Part shown: piece after piece, positions 9,777-59,847 of the stretch
Position numbering within the stretch: position 1 is the first letter of the stretch
Layout: each line of letters opens with the position of its first letter
NCBI GenBank assembly: GCA_045655185.1
Contig: JAZOOS010000012.1
Span: forward strand, 87,396 to 151,395
Origin: Eubacteriales bacterium
GTDB taxonomy: Bacteria > Bacillota > Clostridia > Oscillospirales > CAG-272
Reading direction: 5' to 3'
DNA length: 64,000 nt
Program-made: the position numbers and the translations under genes
The notes under the pieces: model-generated
What the model was told of the DNA's origin: nothing
Database searches by the model: none
Seen by the model: the letters and a program-made list of their open reading frames with translations, nothing else

Positions 9777-11939
9777 TTATTGTGCAGGGGAGAGCTTAAC
9801 GATTACGTATCCCTTATTCGCGCAGGACACCGAAATCCTTCCGTTCGTAACCTTCTCGGAATTGACGGTGAAGCTATCGCTCGTTTCAACAATCGAAATA
9901 TCCATGTCATTCATGTAATCGGGAAGCACGACTTCTTTCCCGTCCAGTGACTTTTGCGTGTGCAGGGAAAGCACGATCTCATCGCCTACCCAGTAATGGT
10001 TCTTCGCGATAAAATCCTCGTCGGTCTTGACAGAGGGGATACGGTAAGCGATAAACGAAAGGTTCTCACCAGCCTCAAAGGGAATGCCGCGGCTGTTACG
10101 GAAGAGGTGTGGGTACATCTTCTGGGTCGTGTGGCACCAGCCGAAGGGGTCGTCGCCCTGAATATAGCTCATTCGGCTTTCGGGCGTCGCGTCTCCATAC
10201 AACGGGTAATACCCAAGGTTCATGGCGGTAGCACCGTCTGCTGAGGTCATCTGGAAGTAGCTGCTGGTTGGCTGATTGGGATCCAAGAGATCGGAAAGGG
10301 TCCACTCAACACTCTTGCCGCTTACTTGCGCCACAGGGGAGGAAGCAACCTTGGTGCCGGGCAGGTATACATATTGGGTGCTTGTGGGCATCATGCAGGA
10401 TTGCACACCTGACATAGAGGTGGCGGTCACAGCGGTCTTAAAGGTGTAGTCGTTATACACGACGGTAGCGCCGTTCTTGTGGAAACGGTACGTGACATCA
10501 ACCGTCACGTAAGCGTCCTTGATCTCTTCATCGTAGTGGCTTTGGTTATCGTTGCTGCCGACGTTGTCCATCAGGTACTGAAGAACGGCGGGCAGATAGA
10601 TGATATCGTAGGTCTCGTGGAAATCAACGAACTCGCAGTCATAAACGCCGTCAACAGAAAGGTCGATCTCCTTTGTGCCGTTAAGGTAGGCGTGTTGTTT
10701 AACATGGTTGGTTGCACCAAAGAATTGCAAACGCTTGCTTTCCTTCGAGGCGGTGATCGTCTTTTTGCTTCCGGTATTTGAAACTTGGGTAAGCGTGCTT
10801 CCCTCATTGATCGAAACCGCGTTGAAGATCCCGCTTTGCATCGAACCGTCGTCAAAGGGGCAGAACCAGGCGTATTCGGTACCCCCATTGTCGTCTTGCG
10901 TGCGGACCTTGACCAAAACAAACTTTTTGGTTCCCATCTGCCAGACCGAGCCAATATCCTCTTCGGTTAAGGCTGCCGTATTGGGGATCGCGGAAATGAT
11001 GTTATAGCCGTGGTTTGCGCCGATATAGGTGCCGTTGAAGAAAAGGGGGGTCACGTCATCATCGGAATACTTGAAGCGGGTGCCGCCTGTTACCTGGTCG
11101 GTTTTGGTGCTTGCGGGCACCTCATAGTTGCCGCTGATGTTAAAGTTCATATTGGCAGAGCCGTGCAGGCGTGCGTCAGTAACGAAATGGTAGCCATCCC
11201 GTCCCCATTCGGTCGCTCGGAAGCGTAAGTACGCGCCATTTGTCGTATGAGGATGGTTTTTGTTGGTCGACTTCGTGCTGTTGGTTTCTTGCTTGACGGT
11301 AAAAATGAAGCCGTTACCCATGGAAGCATTCTCCTGTTTTCCGTATTCCGCTTGGTTTAAAAGGGCGGTAAGGATCGGCACGCCGTTTACTGCCGCTACA
11401 CGGCCCGAGGGGGCAAAATCAGTCCAATCGGGAGCAAAAAGATTGGCGGTGTATTGTAGCTTGCCATTCATTTCGCGGATATAAAGCGTCAGCGGCACAG
11501 GCTCGCTACCGTTGAGAATGATCTCGGCGCGGTTAAGCGAGGCGTTTTCTTGAAAACGAAGCGAAACCACGCGGGTGTCTGTATCAAAATCAAAGCCAAG
11601 GAAGGTGGCACTGTTGAAGCCTTCACGCAGGCCAATTTCGGTTACCAGGTTCTGTGTGGTCTTGTCCTGATATTTTATGATCAGCTTCGTGCCGTCGCCG
11701 GAAAGCGAGACCGATTTGATCGGGTTTTGCGAGATTTCGACGGGTGCGGTGGTGGTTACGGGCACGGTCGTGGTTACGGGTGCGGTGGTGGTAATGGGAT
11801 CGACCGTGGTGGTGGTCGGGACCCCGCCGGTGGTCGTTACGGGCGGCATCAACGTGCTGAAATCAAAGGCGCAGGAAGAAAAGCACAGGACCGCGAAAAC
11901 GATCAGAAACAGAAATAAAAATAAGCGTGCGTGTTTCAC
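9777..11939 (-). CDS. Uncharacterised surface lipoprotein, paralog 1 of 3 (720 aa)
   Basis: GTG start after AGGAGG; lipobox FSSC; P/T-rich linker; colinear with the two neighbouring ORFs. Confidence 0.85.
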   Translation of the reverse strand: MKHARLFLFLFLIVFAVLCFSSCAFDFSTLMPPVTTTGGVPTTTTVDPITTTAPVTTTVPVTTTAPVEISQNPIKSVSLSGDGTKLIIKYQDKTTQNLVTEIGLREGFNSATFLGFDFDTDTRVVSLRFQENASLNRAEIILNGSEPVPLTLYIREMNGKLQYTANLFAPDWTDFAPSGRVAAVNGVPILTALLNQAEYGKQENASMGNGFIFTVKQETNSTKSTNKNHPHTTNGAYLRFRATEWGRDGYHFVTDARLHGSANMNFNISGNYEVPASTKTDQVTGGTRFKYSDDDVTPLFFNGTYIGANHGYNIISAIPNTAALTEEDIGSVWQMGTKKFVLVKVRTQDDNGGTEYAWFCPFDDGSMQSGIFNAVSINEGSTLTQVSNTGSKKTITASKESKRLQFFGATNHVKQHAYLNGTKEIDLSVDGVYDCEFVDFHETYDIIYLPAVLQYLMDNVGSNDNQSHYDEEIKDAYVTVDVTYRFHKNGATVVYNDYTFKTAVTATSMSGVQSCMMPTSTQYVYLPGTKVASSPVAQVSGKSVEWTLSDLLDPNQPTSSYFQMTSADGATAMNLGYYPLYGDATPESRMSYIQGDDPFGWCHTTQKMYPHLFRNSRGIPFEAGENLSFIAYRIPSVKTDEDFIAKNHYWVGDEIVLSLHTQKSLDGKEVVLPDYMNDMDISIVETSDSFTVNSEKVTNGRISVSCANKGYVIVKLSPAQ

Positions 11940-11999
11940 AAATGGACCTCCTAAAGATATTTATAATTTACCATGTATAGTATACCATATATAATAAGA

Positions 12000-12041
12000 A
12001 AAAGCAACAAGCATTTTGTCTAAAAACGCTTGTTGCTTTTT
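12000..12041 (-). terminator. Terminator between paralogs 2 and 1
   Basis: AAAAGCAACAAGC...GCTTGTTGCTTTT inverted repeat; one arm overlaps a TTGCTT-17-TATACT promoter for paralog 1. Confidence 0.75.
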
Positions 12042-12051
12042 GTGGCTTTGC

Positions 12052-14235
12052 TTATTTCGCAGGCGAAAGCTTTACGATCGCGTAGCCGACATCGTCGGTC
12101 GAAAGCGTGATCTTGCTGTTTATAATCGTGGTGGTTTCAACCGTCGCGCTATTGCTCTTTTCGATCACGGTGACCGTCATACCGTTCATATAGTCGGGCA
12201 GGGCGATCTCCTTACCGTCAAGGATCTCCTGGGTGTGAAGCGAAAGGATAATGTCCTCGCCTACCCAGTAGTGGTTTACCGCCAGCATATCTTCATGCGA
12301 AGGGACGGAAGGAATGCGATAAGAGATAAACGAAATGCTGGTTCCGGCCTCGATCAGCCCTTTCTTGCTCGCTTGGTGTGCCAGATTCGGGTATAGCTTC
12401 AAGGAGGAAGCACTGCGACCAAAGGGTTGGGTGGGGTCTCCGGTCAGCTCCATGCGCCGCTCAGGGGTAGCGTCACCGTAAAGCGGATAATATCCAAGGT
12501 TCATCGCTTTGGTTCCGTTGGCATCGGAAAGCTGAAAGTAGGAAGAGGTGGGGACATCGGGGTTCTCGAGATCGTCTTGGTTCCAGGCATAAGTGACGTT
12601 ATTGTCCTTTACGTGCAGGGTAGGCACATTATATTTGGTTGTGCCCGGGATATACAAATAGTCCCCGTCGATGGGGCTGGTCCAAGGATAGGACTGAATG
12701 CCCGAGAGCTGTCCAAACTTAACGGCATTCGGGAAGGTATAATCGGTATAGACAACGCAAGCGCCGTTCTTATGGAAGCGATAGGTAATATCAAAGGTTA
12801 CGTACGCGTCCTCAATCGCTTCATCAAAGTGTGTCAAGTTATTGTTGTAGCTTACATTGTCCATTAAAAACTGCAGCATTGTGGGAAGATAAACCACATC
12901 GTATGTCTCGTGAAAATCAATGAAATCGGCTTGGTAAACGGCGCTGCTGCCAAGATCGACCTCGACCGTTCCGTTTAGAAAGACATGCTGCTGCAGATGG
13001 TTGATCGCCGGAAGGAACTGACAGGAAACGCTTTTTTGCGAGGTGCGAATGCTTGTTTTGTTCGAGGCACCCGATACGTGTGTCAACGTTGAGCCGCTTT
13101 CAATCGCCTTATAAGAAAAGATACCGGTTTCCATCGCATTGTCATCAAAGGGACAGAACCAGGCCATTTTCTCAAAGTCCGTATCGCTGCTGGCGCAGAT
13201 CTTTACTAATACATACTTTTGCGTGCCGCACTTCCAGACGGAGCCGATATCTGCTTCGGTCAGTCCCGTCGTATTGGGGATCGCGGCAATAATGCCGTAG
13301 CCGTGGTTCCCTCCGATATAGGTGTCGTTGATGTAAAGCGGGGTAACATCATCTCCGGAATGCTTGAAGAGGGTACCGCTTTTTACATCGTCGTAGGAAA
13401 TGGAGGAGGGAAGCTCACGGATATCCAGCATATTAAATGCCCAGTTCTTCGAGCTGGATAGGCGCGCGTCAGTTACAAGGTCATACCCCTCCTTCATCCA
13501 TTCCGTGGCGCGGAAGCGGAGGTATGCCCCCTGATTTTTACCGGGCATATAAGCATTGTCCTGCTCGGATCCCGGGGTCTCTTGCTTGACGGTTAAAACC
13601 ATTCCTTCGCCCGAGGATTCGCTCGTCAGCTTACCGTATTGCACATCGTTAAGAAGCACGGTAAGGATCGGCACGCCGCCAACGGCCGCCACACGGCCCG
13701 AGGGCGCAAACTCGATCCAGTTGGGGGAAACGAGATCCTCGGTGTATTGAAGCTTCCCGCCCATTTCGCGCACGTAAAAGATCTTCGGCGCGGCTTCGGT
13801 GCCGCTGAGAATGATCTCGGCGCGGTTAAGCGAAGCGTTTTCTTGGAAGGAAAGCGAGAGAACGCGGTTTTCGGTATCGAAATCAAAGCCAAGGAAGGTA
13901 GCGCCGTTAAACCCTTCGCGCAGGGAAACGGTGGTTACCAGGTTCTGTGTGGTCTTGTCCTGATACTTTACGATCAGCTTTTCGCCGTCATTCGAAAGCG
14001 AGACCGATTTGATCGGGTTTTGAGAGATCTCGATCGGCGCTGTGGTGGTGACGGGAACCGTGGTGGTCACGGGCGCCGTCGTCGAAGGATCGGTGGTGGT
14101 AATAGGTTCTTCGGTCGTTACGGGCGCGGTCGTCGGTGTCATAAGCCCGCCCATAAAGCTGAAATCGCAGGCGGTGAGGCACAAAAGCGCCATCGTGAAG
14201 ATGATCAGTACCAAAAATAAACGGGTAGTTTTCAT
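12052..14235 (-). CDS. Uncharacterised surface lipoprotein, paralog 2 of 3 (727 aa)
   Basis: GAGAGG RBS; lipobox LTAC; shared motifs GAYLRFRATEW, IGGNHGY, WFCPFDD, YRFHKNGA, LSLHT. Confidence 0.85.
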   Translation of the reverse strand: MKTTRLFLVLIIFTMALLCLTACDFSFMGGLMTPTTAPVTTEEPITTTDPSTTAPVTTTVPVTTTAPIEISQNPIKSVSLSNDGEKLIVKYQDKTTQNLVTTVSLREGFNGATFLGFDFDTENRVLSLSFQENASLNRAEIILSGTEAAPKIFYVREMGGKLQYTEDLVSPNWIEFAPSGRVAAVGGVPILTVLLNDVQYGKLTSESSGEGMVLTVKQETPGSEQDNAYMPGKNQGAYLRFRATEWMKEGYDLVTDARLSSSKNWAFNMLDIRELPSSISYDDVKSGTLFKHSGDDVTPLYINDTYIGGNHGYGIIAAIPNTTGLTEADIGSVWKCGTQKYVLVKICASSDTDFEKMAWFCPFDDNAMETGIFSYKAIESGSTLTHVSGASNKTSIRTSQKSVSCQFLPAINHLQQHVFLNGTVEVDLGSSAVYQADFIDFHETYDVVYLPTMLQFLMDNVSYNNNLTHFDEAIEDAYVTFDITYRFHKNGACVVYTDYTFPNAVKFGQLSGIQSYPWTSPIDGDYLYIPGTTKYNVPTLHVKDNNVTYAWNQDDLENPDVPTSSYFQLSDANGTKAMNLGYYPLYGDATPERRMELTGDPTQPFGRSASSLKLYPNLAHQASKKGLIEAGTSISFISYRIPSVPSHEDMLAVNHYWVGEDIILSLHTQEILDGKEIALPDYMNGMTVTVIEKSNSATVETTTIINSKITLSTDDVGYAIVKLSPAK

Positions 14236-16626: not shown

Positions 16627-16702
16627 GCTGGTGTGGCTCAGTCGGTAGAGCAGCTGATTCGTAATCAGCAGGTCGCCGGTTCAAGTCCGGCCACCAGCTC
16701 CA
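16627..16702 (+). tRNA. tRNA-Thr (anticodon CGT)
   Basis: Acceptor GCTGGTG/CACCAGC, D-arm GCTCAGTCGGTAGAGC, anticodon arm GCTGA-TTCGTAA-TCAGC, T-loop GGTTCAAGTCC, encoded CCA. Confidence 0.97.
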
Positions 16703-16742: not shown

Positions 16743-16745
16743 ACA

Positions 16746-16858
16746 ATGAAGCCATTTTGTGGTGCATGAAGAATGAAGCAGGGCTTTGCCCTATGAAGCG
16801 TGCCTGCGGCACACGGAGTAAGAAAGTGCGTGTTTGCGAAGCAAACGCCTCTTTCTTC
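16746..16858. repeat. Micro-array of ATGAAG(C) units and short hairpins behind the tRNA-Thr terminator
   Basis: ATGAAG at 16746, 16766, 16773 and 16793; hairpins AGGGC-TTT-GCCCT, GTGCC-TGC-GGCAC and GTTTGC-GAA-GCAAAC. Confidence 0.6.
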
Positions 16859-56042: not shown

Positions 56043-56726
56043 TTATTTTTTGATCAAATCCCTTTCGGCCGTTACCGCAGCGTTTCGCTCTTGCTCGGGA
56101 TGGCGGGGCTTCGGCAGATCCCAACGGAAGGTGGCCGCCAGCAGCCGCAGGGTCAAAACGATCAGGATCCCCACAAAAAGGCAGACGATGCTATGGAAAT
56201 AAGGATAAATGAGCGAGAAGACAAGGGCCCCCGAGGCCGAAGCACAGGCGTAAAAGTTCTTGATGAAGATCTTCGGTACGTCCTTTGAAAAAACGTCTCG
56301 CAAAACGCCGCCGCCAACCCCGGTTATGACCCCGAGGAGAACCGAGGTGAAAAGGTTGGGGGCATCAATATAGGTAAAGGCGGCGCGCGCCCCGATCACC
56401 GTAAAGACCCCAAGCCCCACCGAGTCGGCGAAAAGCATCAGAAGATCGTAATTCCGATGCTTCCTTGAGAGAAAGGCTTGAATGGGGGGAAGGTAAGTAA
56501 GCGCCGATACCGAAAGCGCCACAAAAGCGTTCAGCGGATCAACGAGCGCCGTCGGCGGGGTAGCCCCCAAGAGGACGTCACGTATGACCCCGCCGCCGAT
56601 CGCGGTGGTCATACCCAAGACGCACGCGCCAAAGATATCCATATCCTTTTTTATGGCGGTCAGCGCCCCCGAAAGGGCAAAGGCTACCGTGCCGATCAGC
56701 TCAAAAATAAAAAAGACAATATTCAT
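56043..56726 (-). CDS. YadS/UPF0126 (TRIC-family) putative glycine transporter
   Basis: Duplicated GTVAFALSGA / GGG.IRD.L motifs; glycine riboswitch upstream. Confidence 0.88.
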   Translation of the reverse strand: MNIVFFIFELIGTVAFALSGALTAIKKDMDIFGACVLGMTTAIGGGVIRDVLLGATPPTALVDPLNAFVALSVSALTYLPPIQAFLSRKHRNYDLLMLFADSVGLGVFTVIGARAAFTYIDAPNLFTSVLLGVITGVGGGVLRDVFSKDVPKIFIKNFYACASASGALVFSLIYPYFHSIVCLFVGILIVLTLRLLAATFRWDLPKPRHPEQERNAAVTAERDLIKK

Positions 56727-56740
56727 AGCTTCTCCTATAA

Positions 56741-56900
56741 ACATTGTCCTTTTACCTGAAAGATTCTTTCCTTGCGGAAATTGCTTCGTCGGTAGCGCTT
56801 GATGGCGCCTTCTTCAATGTGCCGTCCCAAAGCGGTCCTTTTACCTGAAAGCATGACTTCTTCGGTGACCGAACGGTTCTTTCCCGCTTTTTTCATCCGG
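56741..56900 (-). ncRNA. Tandem glycine riboswitch
   Basis: Minus strand has two aptamers: GGAAAGA...CACCGAAGAAG...CTTTCAGGTAAAAGGACCGC and GAAGAAG...ACCGACGAAGCAA...CTTTCAGGTAAAAGGACAATG. Confidence 0.92.
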
Positions 56901-57023
56901 CGATCGTATAAAATTATTGAGGGAAATTCCTCTCTTTCCCATTATATACCAATGCTATGAAAATAGCAAGCGGAAAGAGGAAAATATGTTTCGCGCAACA
57001 AAGCATCCGTGCCGTTATAAAAA

Positions 57024-57602
57024 TCATTCTCCCCACATGTCTTTCTCAAATACAGTTCCATCCTCAACGACGGGTACGGGCATAGACGATTTTTTTGCAT
57101 CAAATACCAACTTATTGTTAACAACGTTGAAAACAAGTAAGTCTCCGGTCTCTAAAGTTAGAGTTAAAGCAGCTTCGGTAAGCTCGTATGTACCGATGAT
57201 CTCGGTGTAGCGGGAGAATATATAGCGACACGTATTATCTGTTTTGGAAAGATTGATAATATCGGGGAGAACAGAACTCATTTCGCTCACGGTAAAGTAT
57301 GTGTCATATGCGAGCAAAGTATAATGCTTGGAAGCGCAGATTTTGCATCTATATATAGTGGTTGATTCGTTTAAGCTTCCCACCCTTTCCCAATATTCAG
57401 GTTTGTCACAAAAATGCGTTCTCTTGCATTCAGCACACACATAATGAACCTGGGCTGCTACCCAATTATGCGTGCAAACAGTAGTCTGTTGATCTTTTGT
57501 AGTGCTTTGACCTATGTTATCAGGAAAGGTAAAAATATCGCATCCCACAAGCATAGAAAGGAAAAGGAAAGAGACAATCAGGATCGATAATACTCGTTTC
57601 AT
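57024..57602 (-). CDS. Small AT-rich lipoprotein with two CxxC pairs
   Basis: Lipobox LVGC; CAEC and CKIC; visibly lower GC than the flanking genes. Confidence 0.75.
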   Translation of the reverse strand: MKRVLSILIVSFLFLSMLVGCDIFTFPDNIGQSTTKDQQTTVCTHNWVAAQVHYVCAECKRTHFCDKPEYWERVGSLNESTTIYRCKICASKHYTLLAYDTYFTVSEMSSVLPDIINLSKTDNTCRYIFSRYTEIIGTYELTEAALTLTLETGDLLVFNVVNNKLVFDAKKSSMPVPVVEDGTVFEKDMWGE

Positions 57603-57719
57603 AAAGCGTTCCCCTTTCGTATTTGTTGAATTTACCTATAAACATTATATCACGTTTTAGAGAACATTTCAACTTTACTCTCAACGTATTGTTGCGAAAA
57701 CAAAAGCCCCCGCATGGGA

Positions 57720-58531
57720 GGGATATTCGCCTTTGGCGAAGATACGCGCACCCTGCGCCTGGCAAGCGAGCTTGCCGATCTTCGGGTGGCGTATGCGACC
57801 CCTCATTTGCTTCGCAAATAGAGGGTTCACGGGCTCCCTGTCCGCCAACGAAAAAAGGCACCCTTTTTGGGAGGGGTATTCGCCTATGGCGAAGATTTTT
57901 CGCCGCGCCGCTTGTGAGCAAGCTCCCAGACGGCTTTGGCTCAAATGCGCATACCGCCTTGGCGGTATCTTGCCAAGCGAGCATACGGGATTGGGGATAG
58001 TACAAACCTGAGCGATTATTCCTTTGCTTCCCGCGAGCGGCAATACCCTCATTTGCTGGCGCAAATAGAGGGTTCTCGCTACCTCCCCAACAAAAAGAAA
58101 AACACCCACAAGGGGTAGGGATATTCGCCGTTGGCGAAGATTTTTCGCCACGCCGCTTGTGAGCAAGCTCCCAGACGGCTTTGGCTCAAATGCGCATACC
58201 GCCTTGGCGGTATCTTGCCATGCGAGCATGCGGGATTGGGGATAGTACGAACCTGAGCGATTATTCCTTTGCTTCCCGCGAGCGGCAATACCCTTATTTG
58301 CTAGCGCAAATAGAGGGTTCTCGTCCTCTTCCTACCAAAAAGAAAAGCAGGTATGAAGTCGGGATATTCAATCCGCTATGCGGAATTGAAGATACGCGCA
58401 CCCTGCGCCTGCCAAGCGAGCTTGCCGATCTTCGGGTGGCGTATGCGAACCCTTTTTCGCTAACGCGAAAAGAGGGCTCTTGCCACCTCCCCAACAAAAA
58501 GAAAAACACCCACAAGGGGTGTTTTTCTTTT
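57720..58531. repeat. Modular A-B-B-A hairpin repeat array abutting the tRNA-Ser 3' end
   Basis: A1 57720-57872, B1 57873-58117, B2 58118-58360, A2 58361-58531. All start GGG(A/G)TATTC-hairpin-GAAGAT and contain CCCT-hairpin-AGAGGG(T/C)TC; B1 and B2 are near-identical. Confidence 0.9.
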
Positions 58532-58621
58532 TGGCGGACAGGGAGGGATTCGAACCCTCGGTCCCGTGAAGGATTACCTGATTTCGAGTCAGGGCCGTTA
58601 TGACCACTTCGATACCTGTCC
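58532..58621 (-). tRNA. tRNA-Ser (anticodon CGA)
   Basis: Minus strand GGACAGGTATCGAAGTGGTCATAACGGCCCTGACTCGAAATCAGG, long variable arm, then GAGGGTTCGAATCCCTCCCTGTCCGCCA. Confidence 0.96.
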
Positions 58622-58728
58622 GTATAAAGGGGTGGCGGTTGCCGCCAACGAAATCTATTGTACCACATCTTTTAAAGGATTGCAAGCCCTTTTTTGAATT
58701 TTTCTGAGAAAAAGGGAAGGGAAAAAGA

Positions 58729-58758
58729 AAAAGCGGAATGGCGAACCATTCCGCTTTT
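58729..58758 (-). terminator. Terminator of the sugar-acid operon
   Basis: AAAAGCGGAATGG-CGAA-CCATTCCGCTTTT. Confidence 0.85.
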
Positions 58759-58773
58759 GGTATAAGAGGCAGA

Positions 58774-59847
58774 TTAGCGCTTAACGCGAGCGTTACCGCC
58801 CCAGATGCTGAAGATCTGCTCTTCATCGGCAGGCTGGGCATAGTCGGTAAGGAAGGTAGTGGCAAGAGCGCCGCTCGCCCAAGCGAACTGCAGCTGCTTC
58901 TCGGCATCCCAACCCTTGATGATGGAGTAGAGAAGGCCGCCAACAAAGCCGTCGCCGCCGCCGATACGGTCAAGAACCGTGATGTCACGGGGCTCGGCGA
59001 TGTGCCACTCGTTGTCGCTCCAGAGGATAGCACCCCAGAGGTGGTGGTTAACGTTGATGACCTGACGGAGCGTGGTACCGAACACGCTGGCGTTCGGGAA
59101 CTTCTCACGCACGCAGTTGATCATGGCCTTGAAGCTCTCGATCTTGGAGCCAAGGTCCTTACCGCCGGCCTCGGGACCCTCGATGCCGAGGCAGAGCTGG
59201 AAGTCTTCCTCGTTGCCGACGAGGATATCGGCGACAGAAGCGATCTCGGTGAAGATGTCGTGAAGCTCCTGCTCGCGGCCCTTCCAGAAGGAAGCGCGGT
59301 GATTGAGGTCAAAGGCGATGAGCGTGCCGTGCTTCTTCGCGGCACGGGCAAGCTCTAAGCAGAACTGGCTGGTCTCGGGCGAAAGAGCGCCGATAAGACC
59401 CGAAAGGTGAAGAACGCCAACGCCCTCTTCGCCAAAGAGACGCTCAAGGTCGAAATCCTTTATCGAAAGGGTACGACCAACCTCGCCCGCACGGTCGTTC
59501 TGTACGCGAGGGCCTCTTGCGCCGTAACCGCTGTCGGCAATGTTGAACTGGTGACGGTAGCCCCAAGGGCCGCCCTGCTCAACCTCGGGACCCTCAAAGG
59601 TCATGCCGCGGCCGAGAAGGTTGTGCTTGATCATCTTGGAGATGGGGCTATCCTTAACGAAGGCGGTCAGAACGTGAGTGGGAAGGCCGAGGTACGAGGA
59701 GATGCTGGCAACGTTGGTCTCCGCGCTGGTGACCTGCATACGGAAGAGCTCGGACGAGTAGACGGGCTGACCGTCGGGCGGGCAGATACGAACGCCCATA
59801 CTGGTGGGAACCACCAGAGCGTACTTGTAGTTTTCTCTCAGCTTCAT
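58774..59847 (-). CDS. PfkB-family sugar-acid kinase (KdgK/gluconate-kinase-like)
   Basis: AETNVA, LHLSG, FDLNHRASFW, GNEED, DRIGGGDGF. Confidence 0.85.
   Translation of the reverse strand: MKLRENYKYALVVPTSMGVRICPPDGQPVYSSELFRMQVTSAETNVASISSYLGLPTHVLTAFVKDSPISKMIKHNLLGRGMTFEGPEVEQGGPWGYRHQFNIADSGYGARGPRVQNDRAGEVGRTLSIKDFDLERLFGEEGVGVLHLSGLIGALSPETSQFCLELARAAKKHGTLIAFDLNHRASFWKGREQELHDIFTEIASVADILVGNEEDFQLCLGIEGPEAGGKDLGSKIESFKAMINCVREKFPNASVFGTTLRQVINVNHHLWGAILWSDNEWHIAEPRDITVLDRIGGGDGFVGGLLYSIIKGWDAEKQLQFAWASGALATTFLTDYAQPADEEQIFSIWGGNARVKR

Follow-up and report, generated by a model that had tools for sequence, protein, structure and literature searches.

Hairpin units in tandem behind a tRNA-Ser gene: a dispersed family of putative non-coding DNA elements at tRNA 3′ flanks of gut Clostridia

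Known systems and the array behind tRNA-Ser(cga)

Transfer RNA (tRNA) genes are classic landing sites of mobile DNA, and the known players bring their own integrase. The tyrT/rtT tRNA-linked repeats of Escherichia coli are reportedly repeated units that stand behind a tRNA gene and contain the tRNA 3′ end, as does the array described here; unlike this array, they are said to have no inverted copy, no T-loop hairpin core and no spread over many tRNAs. The array lies in a 64,000-nucleotide (nt) stretch of a genome labelled Eubacteriales bacterium (GenBank assembly GCA_045655185.1, contig JAZOOS010000012.1, positions 87,396 to 151,395), here called the window, where positions 57697-58531 are filled by four hairpin-rich units, U1 to U4, in the order A-B-B-A, 3′ of tRNA-Ser(cga). 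On balance the four units are probably copies of one DNA element, non-coding and non-autonomous, or of a recombination site, which settles in the 3′ flanks of tRNA and transfer-messenger RNA (tmRNA) genes and is placed there in trans.

The systems closest to such an element are compared here. Tyrosine integrases insert genomic islands and islets into tRNA or tmRNA genes, integrase-less remnants being known too (Islander, PMC4383910), and the Ms6 attB site lies in a tRNA-Ala T loop (PMC1762012). In its function the element would be most like such tRNA-integrating islets. Shared with them are the position 3′ of an intact tRNA, a direct copy of the tRNA 3′ end moved to the far border, a crossover region in the T loop, tandem accretion and cargo in between; the units differ in being a family without integrase, in their size of 140-250 nt, and in having an extra inverted copy, a hairpin core and a range of at least 12 tRNA species per family. 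The source genome (1.6 Mb, 96% complete; G000 in locus names, in which other G numbers are related genomes, C contigs and L fetched loci) also holds a classical contrast, a 2.76-kb element at tRNA-Pro(ggg) on the same contig and outside the window (G000:C12:6280-9036). It encodes an integrase of 310 amino acids (aa) and a rolling-circle Rep of 265 aa (PF23343), is bounded by a 46-bp direct repeat starting in the anticodon stem, and has no inverted copy and no unit motifs.

The original prediction, made from the letters of the window alone, had likened the array to REP/BIME or attC cassettes and, alternatively, to a family of structured RNAs. REP, BIME and REPIN elements are mobilised by RAYT (PMC3116915, PMC2817692). 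Like them the units are short, non-coding, palindromic, multi-copy, arranged in mosaic arrays and constrained at the DNA level; unlike them they number 17 copies in the source genome instead of hundreds, are confined to tRNA flanks and have target-derived ends, and no RAYT (Y1) was found in G000. The proposed link to HUH/RAYT transposases was not borne out, PF01797 (Y1_Tnp) having 0 matches in G000 against matches in 6 of 14 control genomes.

Folded single-strand sites are known from integron attC (PMC4792948) and the CTX-phi attP hairpin (PMC3442271). With these the units have in common that structure is kept while sequence varies, and that they form cassette arrays. By analogy with the folded-attP logic of CTX-phi, the inverted and the direct copy could fold into a duplex mimicking the target. 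The units differ from both in that no intI or attI is present, no dif-like site is found and the arms are not kept complementary after insertion. By eye, no R/L box consensus (attC, GTTRRRY core) was apparent in the family alignments, and no dif-like word was conserved in the family alignment. An integron platform (intI, attI, Pc) is lacking, with no recombinase in 12 kb around the array. The attC comparison thus fails on the intI/attI platform that defines the class; a mobile element or recombination site still fits better than an RNA. Rejection of a CRISPR, an insertion sequence (IS) or a simple tandem repeat was upheld. The family is apparently undescribed: Rfam, the phages, the plasmids and the literature searched gave no match, and no description of such elements was found in full-text literature, a search to which subscription-only papers and supplements are external.

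Organisation of the array and anatomy of a unit

The array is flanked by the gene of a 192-aa protein (57024-57602, minus strand) and by tRNA-Ser(cga) (58532-58621, minus strand), whose terminator it directly adjoins. The repeated motifs predicted at first are all present. The head GGG(A/G)TATTC occurs four times (57720, 57873, 58118 and 58361), each time followed by a hairpin and GAAGAT, and the tail CCCT-hairpin-AGAGGG(T/C)TC also occurs four times (57800-57825, 58046-58072, 58291-58317 and 58450-58476). Cores are of two lengths, approximately 56 nt in U1 and U4 versus approximately 150 nt in U2 and U3. A repeat finder returned a 12-nt head in four copies at intervals of 153, 245 and 243 nt, and identities of 92% between U2 and U3 across 236 nt and of 93% between the U1 and U4 cores across 74 nt. 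This plus-strand description was incomplete, since the natural sense is that of the tRNA strand, with which every unit is co-oriented; on the plus strand the units converge on the tRNA. Nor had it recognised head and tail as the places where a unit meets copies of the tRNA's T arm and acceptor end.

The anatomy is therefore given on the minus strand, the tRNA's own sense. The intact tRNA and its terminator with a T run are followed by an arm A′, an apex hairpin, the T-stem 5′ strand with TTCG, the core, an arm A″ and a terminator. A′ is an inverted copy of the last approximately 30 nt of the tRNA, opening with TGG (the complement of CCA) and continuing through the acceptor strand and T arm, and A″ is a direct copy made of the T-stem 3′ strand and the start of the acceptor strand, after which the terminator closes the unit. 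The T loop of the direct T-arm copy is split after TTCG (family-wide TTCR) by the conserved core, which consists of CAT, an 11-bp stem P2 with one bulge that encloses hairpin P3, and then hairpin P4, of the form ATCTTCGCC-NNN-GGCGAA, at the end of the core. The tip of P3 carries the constant word AGCTYGCT. The former tail is the apex hairpin and the former head is the P4 hairpin. The tRNA end, spacer, terminator and A′ form a single long palindrome centred on the terminator loop (inverted repeats I1-I3). No unit, at an element size of 140-250 nt, contains an open reading frame (ORF), and most units end in a hairpin and T run in tRNA sense. The tRNA-proximal terminator was considered as a travelling part of the element; this was given up as an argument, since an ordinary protein gene is closed by a terminator of the same type.

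The features of the array are listed below with their window coordinates; scores in bits for the units refer to a covariance model built from 13 copies.

58532..58621, minus strand: intact tRNA-Ser(cga), anchor of the array (ARAGORN; Rfam tRNA, 52.6 bits)
58496..58531, no single strand: bidirectional terminator hairpin of the tRNA, midpoint of the long palindrome of tRNA 3′ end and U4 inverted copy (sequence; inverted repeat I3, arms 58486-58511 and 58517-58542, 85% complementary)
58358..58495, minus strand: unit U4, A type, tRNA sense (sequence; covariance model match 58357-58457, 68 bits, G000:C12:145752-145852), with degenerate A′ 58477-58495, apex hairpin 58450-58476, TTCG|CAT and P2/P3 core 58394-58449, variant long P4 hairpin 58367-58390 and a decayed T-stem 3′ copy
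58113..58357, minus strand: unit U3, B type (covariance model match 58116-58204, 60.1 bits; 92% identity with U2), with A′ remnant 58318-58339, apex hairpin 58291-58317, nested B2 58195-58290, core B1 58142-58194, P4 58124-58138, T-stem 3′ copy and half a terminator
57870..58112, minus strand: unit U2, B type (covariance model match 57871-57959, 63.5 bits; repeat family D1), with A′ 58073-58091, apex hairpin 58046-58072, B2 57950-58045, core B1 57897-57949 and P4 57879-57893
57697..57869, minus strand: unit U1, A type (covariance model match 57716-57807, 91.4 bits; inverted repeat I1, formed with the end of the tRNA; DNA fold), with the best-preserved inverted tRNA-Ser 3′ end 57826-57849, apex hairpin 57800-57825, core A 57744-57799, P4 57726-57740, T-stem 3′ copy and a minus-strand terminator 57707-57723 with T run
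57644..57672, minus strand: promoter-like site of the 192-aa gene (11 of 12 consensus matches), which bounds the array and lies outside the element

The claim of two alternative cores holds in part. A and B do differ, and B is not independent: its B1 portion (approximately 53 nt) is homologous to core A, and a nested module B2 of approximately 96 nt is inserted between the T-stem strand and CGCAT.

Both arms follow the tRNA. In 37 tRNA-proximal units the direct copy extends as far as CCA (16 of 16 nt) in L020, L061 and L009, is nearly complete in L018, L039 and L023 and is partial in the remainder, comprising only the T-stem 3′ strand and CC in the window. When both arms of 14 tRNA-proximal units were aligned to the last 16 nt of their tRNA, 105 of 135 positions were unchanged, 12 were changed in the direct copy only, 17 in the inverted copy only and 1 in both without compensation, compensatory changes being absent (0). 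Arm pairing is therefore not maintained after insertion, and the arms decay independently, unlike P2-P4. In the 77 distinct copies analysed the word directly before the left junction is TTCG, TTCA or TCCG, and P2 and P4 are subterminal. At L040 (1420-1600) and L021 (790-1000) a unit stands 5′ of tRNA-Ser(cga) on the opposite strand, inserted after the CCAC-TTCG of the antisense D arm, and its design is the same: intact target, hairpin, inverted copy, apex and a direct copy split after TTCG. Since the same architecture is met at a D-arm TTCG, this suggests that the target is the TTCG|A context rather than the tRNA end as such.

Distribution, constraint and turnover of the family

The units belong to a dispersed family, with copies across the genome and its relatives, and its stems are conserved and covary as predicted. 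BLAST placed further copies on six other contigs of the source genome, and the covariance model found 17 copies there, all co-oriented with and 3′ of a tRNA gene or tRNA fragment. Eleven of the 17 lie 70-800 nt downstream of a tRNA called by ARAGORN on the same strand (Ser-cga four times, Arg-cct twice, and Ser-gga, Gln-ttg, Glu-ttc, Glu-ctc and Pro-tgg); each of the other six either has a tRNA-Pro fragment before it or is located on contig C7 or C31, both of which break off within a tRNA. Sixty fetched loci gave 81 matches, 77 of them distinct, and 57 of the 77 have a tRNA or tmRNA upstream on the same strand within the locus. Four of the 20 exceptions were inspected: one follows a pseudo-tRNA-Ser, two are the opposite-strand units 5′ of tRNA-Ser(cga) at L040 and L021:790, and L051 has no evident tRNA context. 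The proposed anchoring to tRNA genes is thus confirmed by 17 of 17 copies in the source genome and by the 57 of 77 in the fetched loci.

A unit usually agrees with the adjacent tRNA in its T-stem strands and in its TTCG/TTCA/TCCG word, and so does its inverted copy. Within one genome the arms are local, whereas cores from different tRNA loci share 83-90% identity, and the same core of approximately 75 nt with the junction words TTCR|CAT ... GGCGAA occurs at at least 12 tRNA species and at tmRNA. In the source genome a divergent unit-like stretch, TCCGCAT ... ATCTTCACG-loop-CGTGAA, was also seen at G000:C24, approximately 12224-12300, 184 nt 3′ of the tmRNA gene (11673-12039); it was found by regular expression and gave no covariance model match at E up to 0.01. 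A different type of mini-insert was noted at L031 (G022) 3′ of tRNA-Met, where approximately 200 nt lie between direct repeats of the tRNA from anticodon loop to 3′ end.

The host group is an uncultured genus of gut Clostridia, Oscillospiraceae-like. Under the stricter filters used for the large genome surveys of genus and order, covariance model matches turned up in 51 of the 61 genus genomes sampled, G000 among them, with a maximum of 19 copies per genome and approximately 340 in all. Among 150 other genomes of the order only five were positive, from five different families and with 1-2 copies each. The exact junction pattern had 20 matches in a named genome collection, approximately 12 of them with the 75-nt spacing of the family, and these were all from animal-gut Clostridia metagenome-assembled genomes (MAGs) labelled Oscillospiraceae, Eubacteriales or Ruminococcus. 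The nearest named relatives of the window are likewise Eubacteriales and Oscillospiraceae-like MAGs, and pieces of the stretch occur in DNA runs from bovine and other gut metagenomes; no RNA run is among the public runs listed as containing it.

Constraint on the stems was quantified with a hand-drawn structure of 27 pairs (P1-P4, P1 being the T-stem copy), scored on the 77 distinct copies against column shuffles; the model behind the alignment already contained part of this structure, a bias in its favour. Overall 90.1% of cells pair versus 72.8% in shuffles and 27-49% in slid controls, changes on both sides occur in 26 of 27 pairs, and the covariation score is 0.414 versus 0.142 and was reached by 0 of 500 shuffles. 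As single-stranded DNA, U1 and U4 fold on either strand with z-scores of −3.0 to −4.1 relative to shuffles. Among 1150 pairs of P2-P4 in 51 A-type copies, 1089 are Watson-Crick, 15 G-U, 11 A-C and 35 other, and in the same copies P1, which serves as internal control, has 164 Watson-Crick, 17 G-U and 1 A-C. P1 bears an RNA signature in tRNA sense and the element's own stems bear none on either strand. An RNA under selection is expected to tolerate G-U and to purge A-C, and the near equality of the two in P2-P4 therefore points to a constraint on DNA, not RNA. The earlier conclusion that selection acts on structure is accordingly supported by strong covariation, and its structured-RNA option is disfavoured.

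No Rfam family had a match on the units at its gathering score. With E up to 10 across window positions 56500-59500 the best match on the units was LOOT, at 26.3 bits versus a cut-off of 46.4. Twenty loci (57,755 nt) at gathering scores contained only the tRNA, tmRNA, glycine and purine families.

Units are replaced, multiplied and recombined between relatives. The tRNA-Pro(tgg) gene is identical in G000 and G021 and its upstream region is common to both, and yet one genome has an A-type unit behind it and the other a B1-like one, and the two differ in terminator, inverted copy and apex hairpin. Behind tRNA-Ser(gga) one unit is present in G000, and G019 shows a tandem of three nearly identical units (period 172) with a fourth, truncated one, a 553-aa gene and then the shared flank. 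At tRNA-Ser(cga) itself G019 carries two A units similar to U4 and U1, and G021 two units with hybrid cores in which A and B1 meet at AGCTTGCT. One metagenome contig links 58085 to 58495, skipping U3 and U4, and is ascribed to another strain because it matches only at the 90% likeness level. Of the named relatives that share the upstream gene, the nearest (L086) retains no more than a relic of approximately 60 nt and has a different downstream gene, and the other 23 loci inspected for an orthologous empty site were without the tRNA.

G000 and G021 share 96% identity at tRNA-Arg(cct) over the tRNA, the terminator and the first approximately 20 nt of the inverted copy and then diverge, with two cores in G000 and a B2-like head with a 434-aa ORF in G021. 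At this locus (L202, G021:C122) the first part of the B2 module of U2 and U3 (TATTGCCGCTC.CGG ... AATCGCTCA) recurs as the leader of the orphan 434-aa ORF, and B2 may for that reason be the head of a gene cassette whose gene was lost. On contig C7 (G000:C7:1-3000, locus L085) units alternate with AT-rich ORFs of 83, 160 and 338 aa co-oriented with the tRNA, for which no Pfam family was found. One of these cassettes terminates in a tRNA 3′ fragment, and the whole looks like a small cassette array.

Proposed insertion, rival explanations and neighbouring features

Mechanistically we infer, from the anatomy, tRNA link, DNA-type covariation and turnover, that the core would be the travelling part, acting as folded or duplex DNA in the manner of a recombination or insertion site. 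It would be placed at TTCG|A, above all in the T loop, by a putative enzyme supplied in trans, and the process would leave or use one direct and one inverted target copy, so that the tRNA gene stays whole. Arrays such as A-B-B-A could then expand as units insert repeatedly, duplicate in tandem and recombine with one another at the conserved tip of the core, and the same tRNA-flank sites would also gather orphan gene cassettes. A further-reaching version is possible but rather doubtful: tRNA 3′ flanks may be integron-like capture platforms without a local integrase, their units being folded-DNA sites that rebuild the duplex T arm and acceptor end, at which an enzyme in trans, possibly of the host, would insert empty units and orphan cassettes at TTCG|A with the tRNA left intact.

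Candidate partner enzymes were sought in the source genome, which encodes two tyrosine recombinases and one large serine recombinase; neither tyrosine recombinase is near a unit. One is the integrase of the 2.76-kb element, the only phage-type integrase and approximately 136 kb from the array. The rolling-circle Rep of that element, the only such Rep in the source genome and 99% identical to one in G019, is present in 6 of the 61 genus genomes, 51 of which have units, and is missing from several unit-rich ones. The large serine recombinase occurs in 19 of 61; with this query it had no match in the unit-rich G019, G060, G020, G010 and G021 and was present in the unit-free G046, G052, G055, G075 and G009. 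Both were rejected as partners because their occurrence does not track the units. This leaves a Xer-like recombinase (genus-wide; G000:C13, 349 aa), an unrecognised enzyme, an enzyme of a visiting replicon, or no dedicated enzyme.

Several observations weigh against placement in trans. Besides the failure of Rep and the serine recombinase to track the units, no recombinase or transposase adjoins the units, in line with the original statement that no enzyme gene is adjacent, which was extended to no recombinase within 12 kb around the array, and G000 at its 96% completeness gave no Y1-HUH, IS110, TnpB or reverse transcriptase match. Neither an excised form nor a copy on a phage or plasmid was encountered: blastn in distant mode with U1 and U2 against phages and plasmids returned no match, and the exact junction pattern had 0 matches in IMG/VR viral contigs. 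No pair of empty and filled sites with both flanks conserved was found that would delimit the inserted segment and the crossover point. The 30 changed arm positions in 14 units include 0 compensated ones, and the right junction, GAA followed by TAT, TAC or ATT, does not simply repeat T-loop positions 58-60.

Chief among the rivals is a purely replicative origin, which we hold to be unlikely. It would need no dedicated machinery: the direct-inverted-direct triplication of the tRNA end would arise as replication folds back or switches template at the hairpins of terminator and T arm, and the hairpin core would then spread and be homogenised through gene conversion and unequal crossing-over. Such an origin would account for the continuous palindrome from tRNA end through spacer, terminator and second spacer to the inverted copy, including the locus-specific spacer, as well as for near-identical tandem units, hybrid cores and the failure to find an enzyme. 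It does not readily account for the presence of the same core of about 75 nt and its junction words at so many tRNA species, at tmRNA and in five other families of the order, nor for different subtypes at an identical tRNA in sister species, and the homology flanking the core would be too short for ordinary conversion at the limit that we infer. Quite improbable is an RNA function, in which the units would be structured small RNA genes or functional 3′ trailers of the tRNA transcript, in tRNA sense and with their own terminators. Co-orientation with the tRNA, the hairpin and T run after most units, the covarying stems and the conserved unpaired motifs in the family speak for RNA; the nearly pure Watson-Crick stems with their balance of G-U and A-C pairs, the absence of an Rfam family at threshold and the strong terminator between tRNA and units speak against it, as do the facts that both strands fold equally well and that the arms pair through CCA, leaving no free tRNA-like end.

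Insertion 3′ of the tetranucleotide TTCG on single-stranded DNA by non-autonomous relatives of single-strand transposons (IS200/IS605 PATE or REP/RAYT) would explain a left junction always after TTCR, the fixed orientation, the subterminal hairpins P2 and P4 and the lack of a simple target duplication. We consider it very unlikely, as Y1_Tnp had no match in G000 and did have matches in control genomes, what the insertions interrupt is a copy of the target rather than the tRNA, and the right junction does not show a clean resumption of the target. To our knowledge an inverted target copy is not a feature of either transposon type. There is hardly any likelihood that the array owes its A-B-B-A form to misassembly of a repeat family. 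No public short-read contig from four DNA runs spans the array to confirm its order independently, the contigs breaking inside it at 57780 and at the tRNA, and many contigs of G000 end in units; independent assemblies of relatives nevertheless have arrays at the same tRNA, with two units in G019 and two in G021, the units are distinct enough to be placed (92-93% identity), and the flanks on both sides are unique.

With a DNA element placed in trans as the preferred reading, a protein-less element of 140-250 nt uses the same sites as classical mobile DNA, at at least 12 tRNAs and tmRNA, always together with one direct and one inverted target copy, and in up to 19 copies in genomes smaller than 2 Mb. 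If it is mobile, its mechanism lies outside those described and could reveal a new mode of T-loop targeting. In practice the element breaks metagenome assemblies at tRNA loci, flags hot spots of orphan genes in abundant rumen and gut Clostridia and, owing to its covarying stems, is easily mistaken for a structured RNA.

Of the neighbouring genes, the one upstream of tRNA-Ser(cga) encodes a PfkB-family kinase, and a Pfam search with the 192-aa protein on the other side of the array gave no match. Gut-1 (RF01706) had no match on the units, and its sub-threshold matches sit behind other tRNAs. One of these, at window positions 16744-16824 on the plus strand with 25.3 bits (cut-off 50), lies 42 nt behind tRNA-Thr(cgt) (16627-16702), and a stronger one of 40.6 bits is at G000:C34:31452-31528, directly behind the tRNA-Pro(tgg) unit. 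A second kind of element may thus stand behind tRNA genes here. Near the array, window positions 56740-56900 on the minus strand resemble a tandem glycine riboswitch (glycine-GGAnGA, 89.6 bits, cut-off 110), which precedes a gene of a glycine-transporter family at 56043-56744; two Glycine aptamers score above the cut-off in L001.

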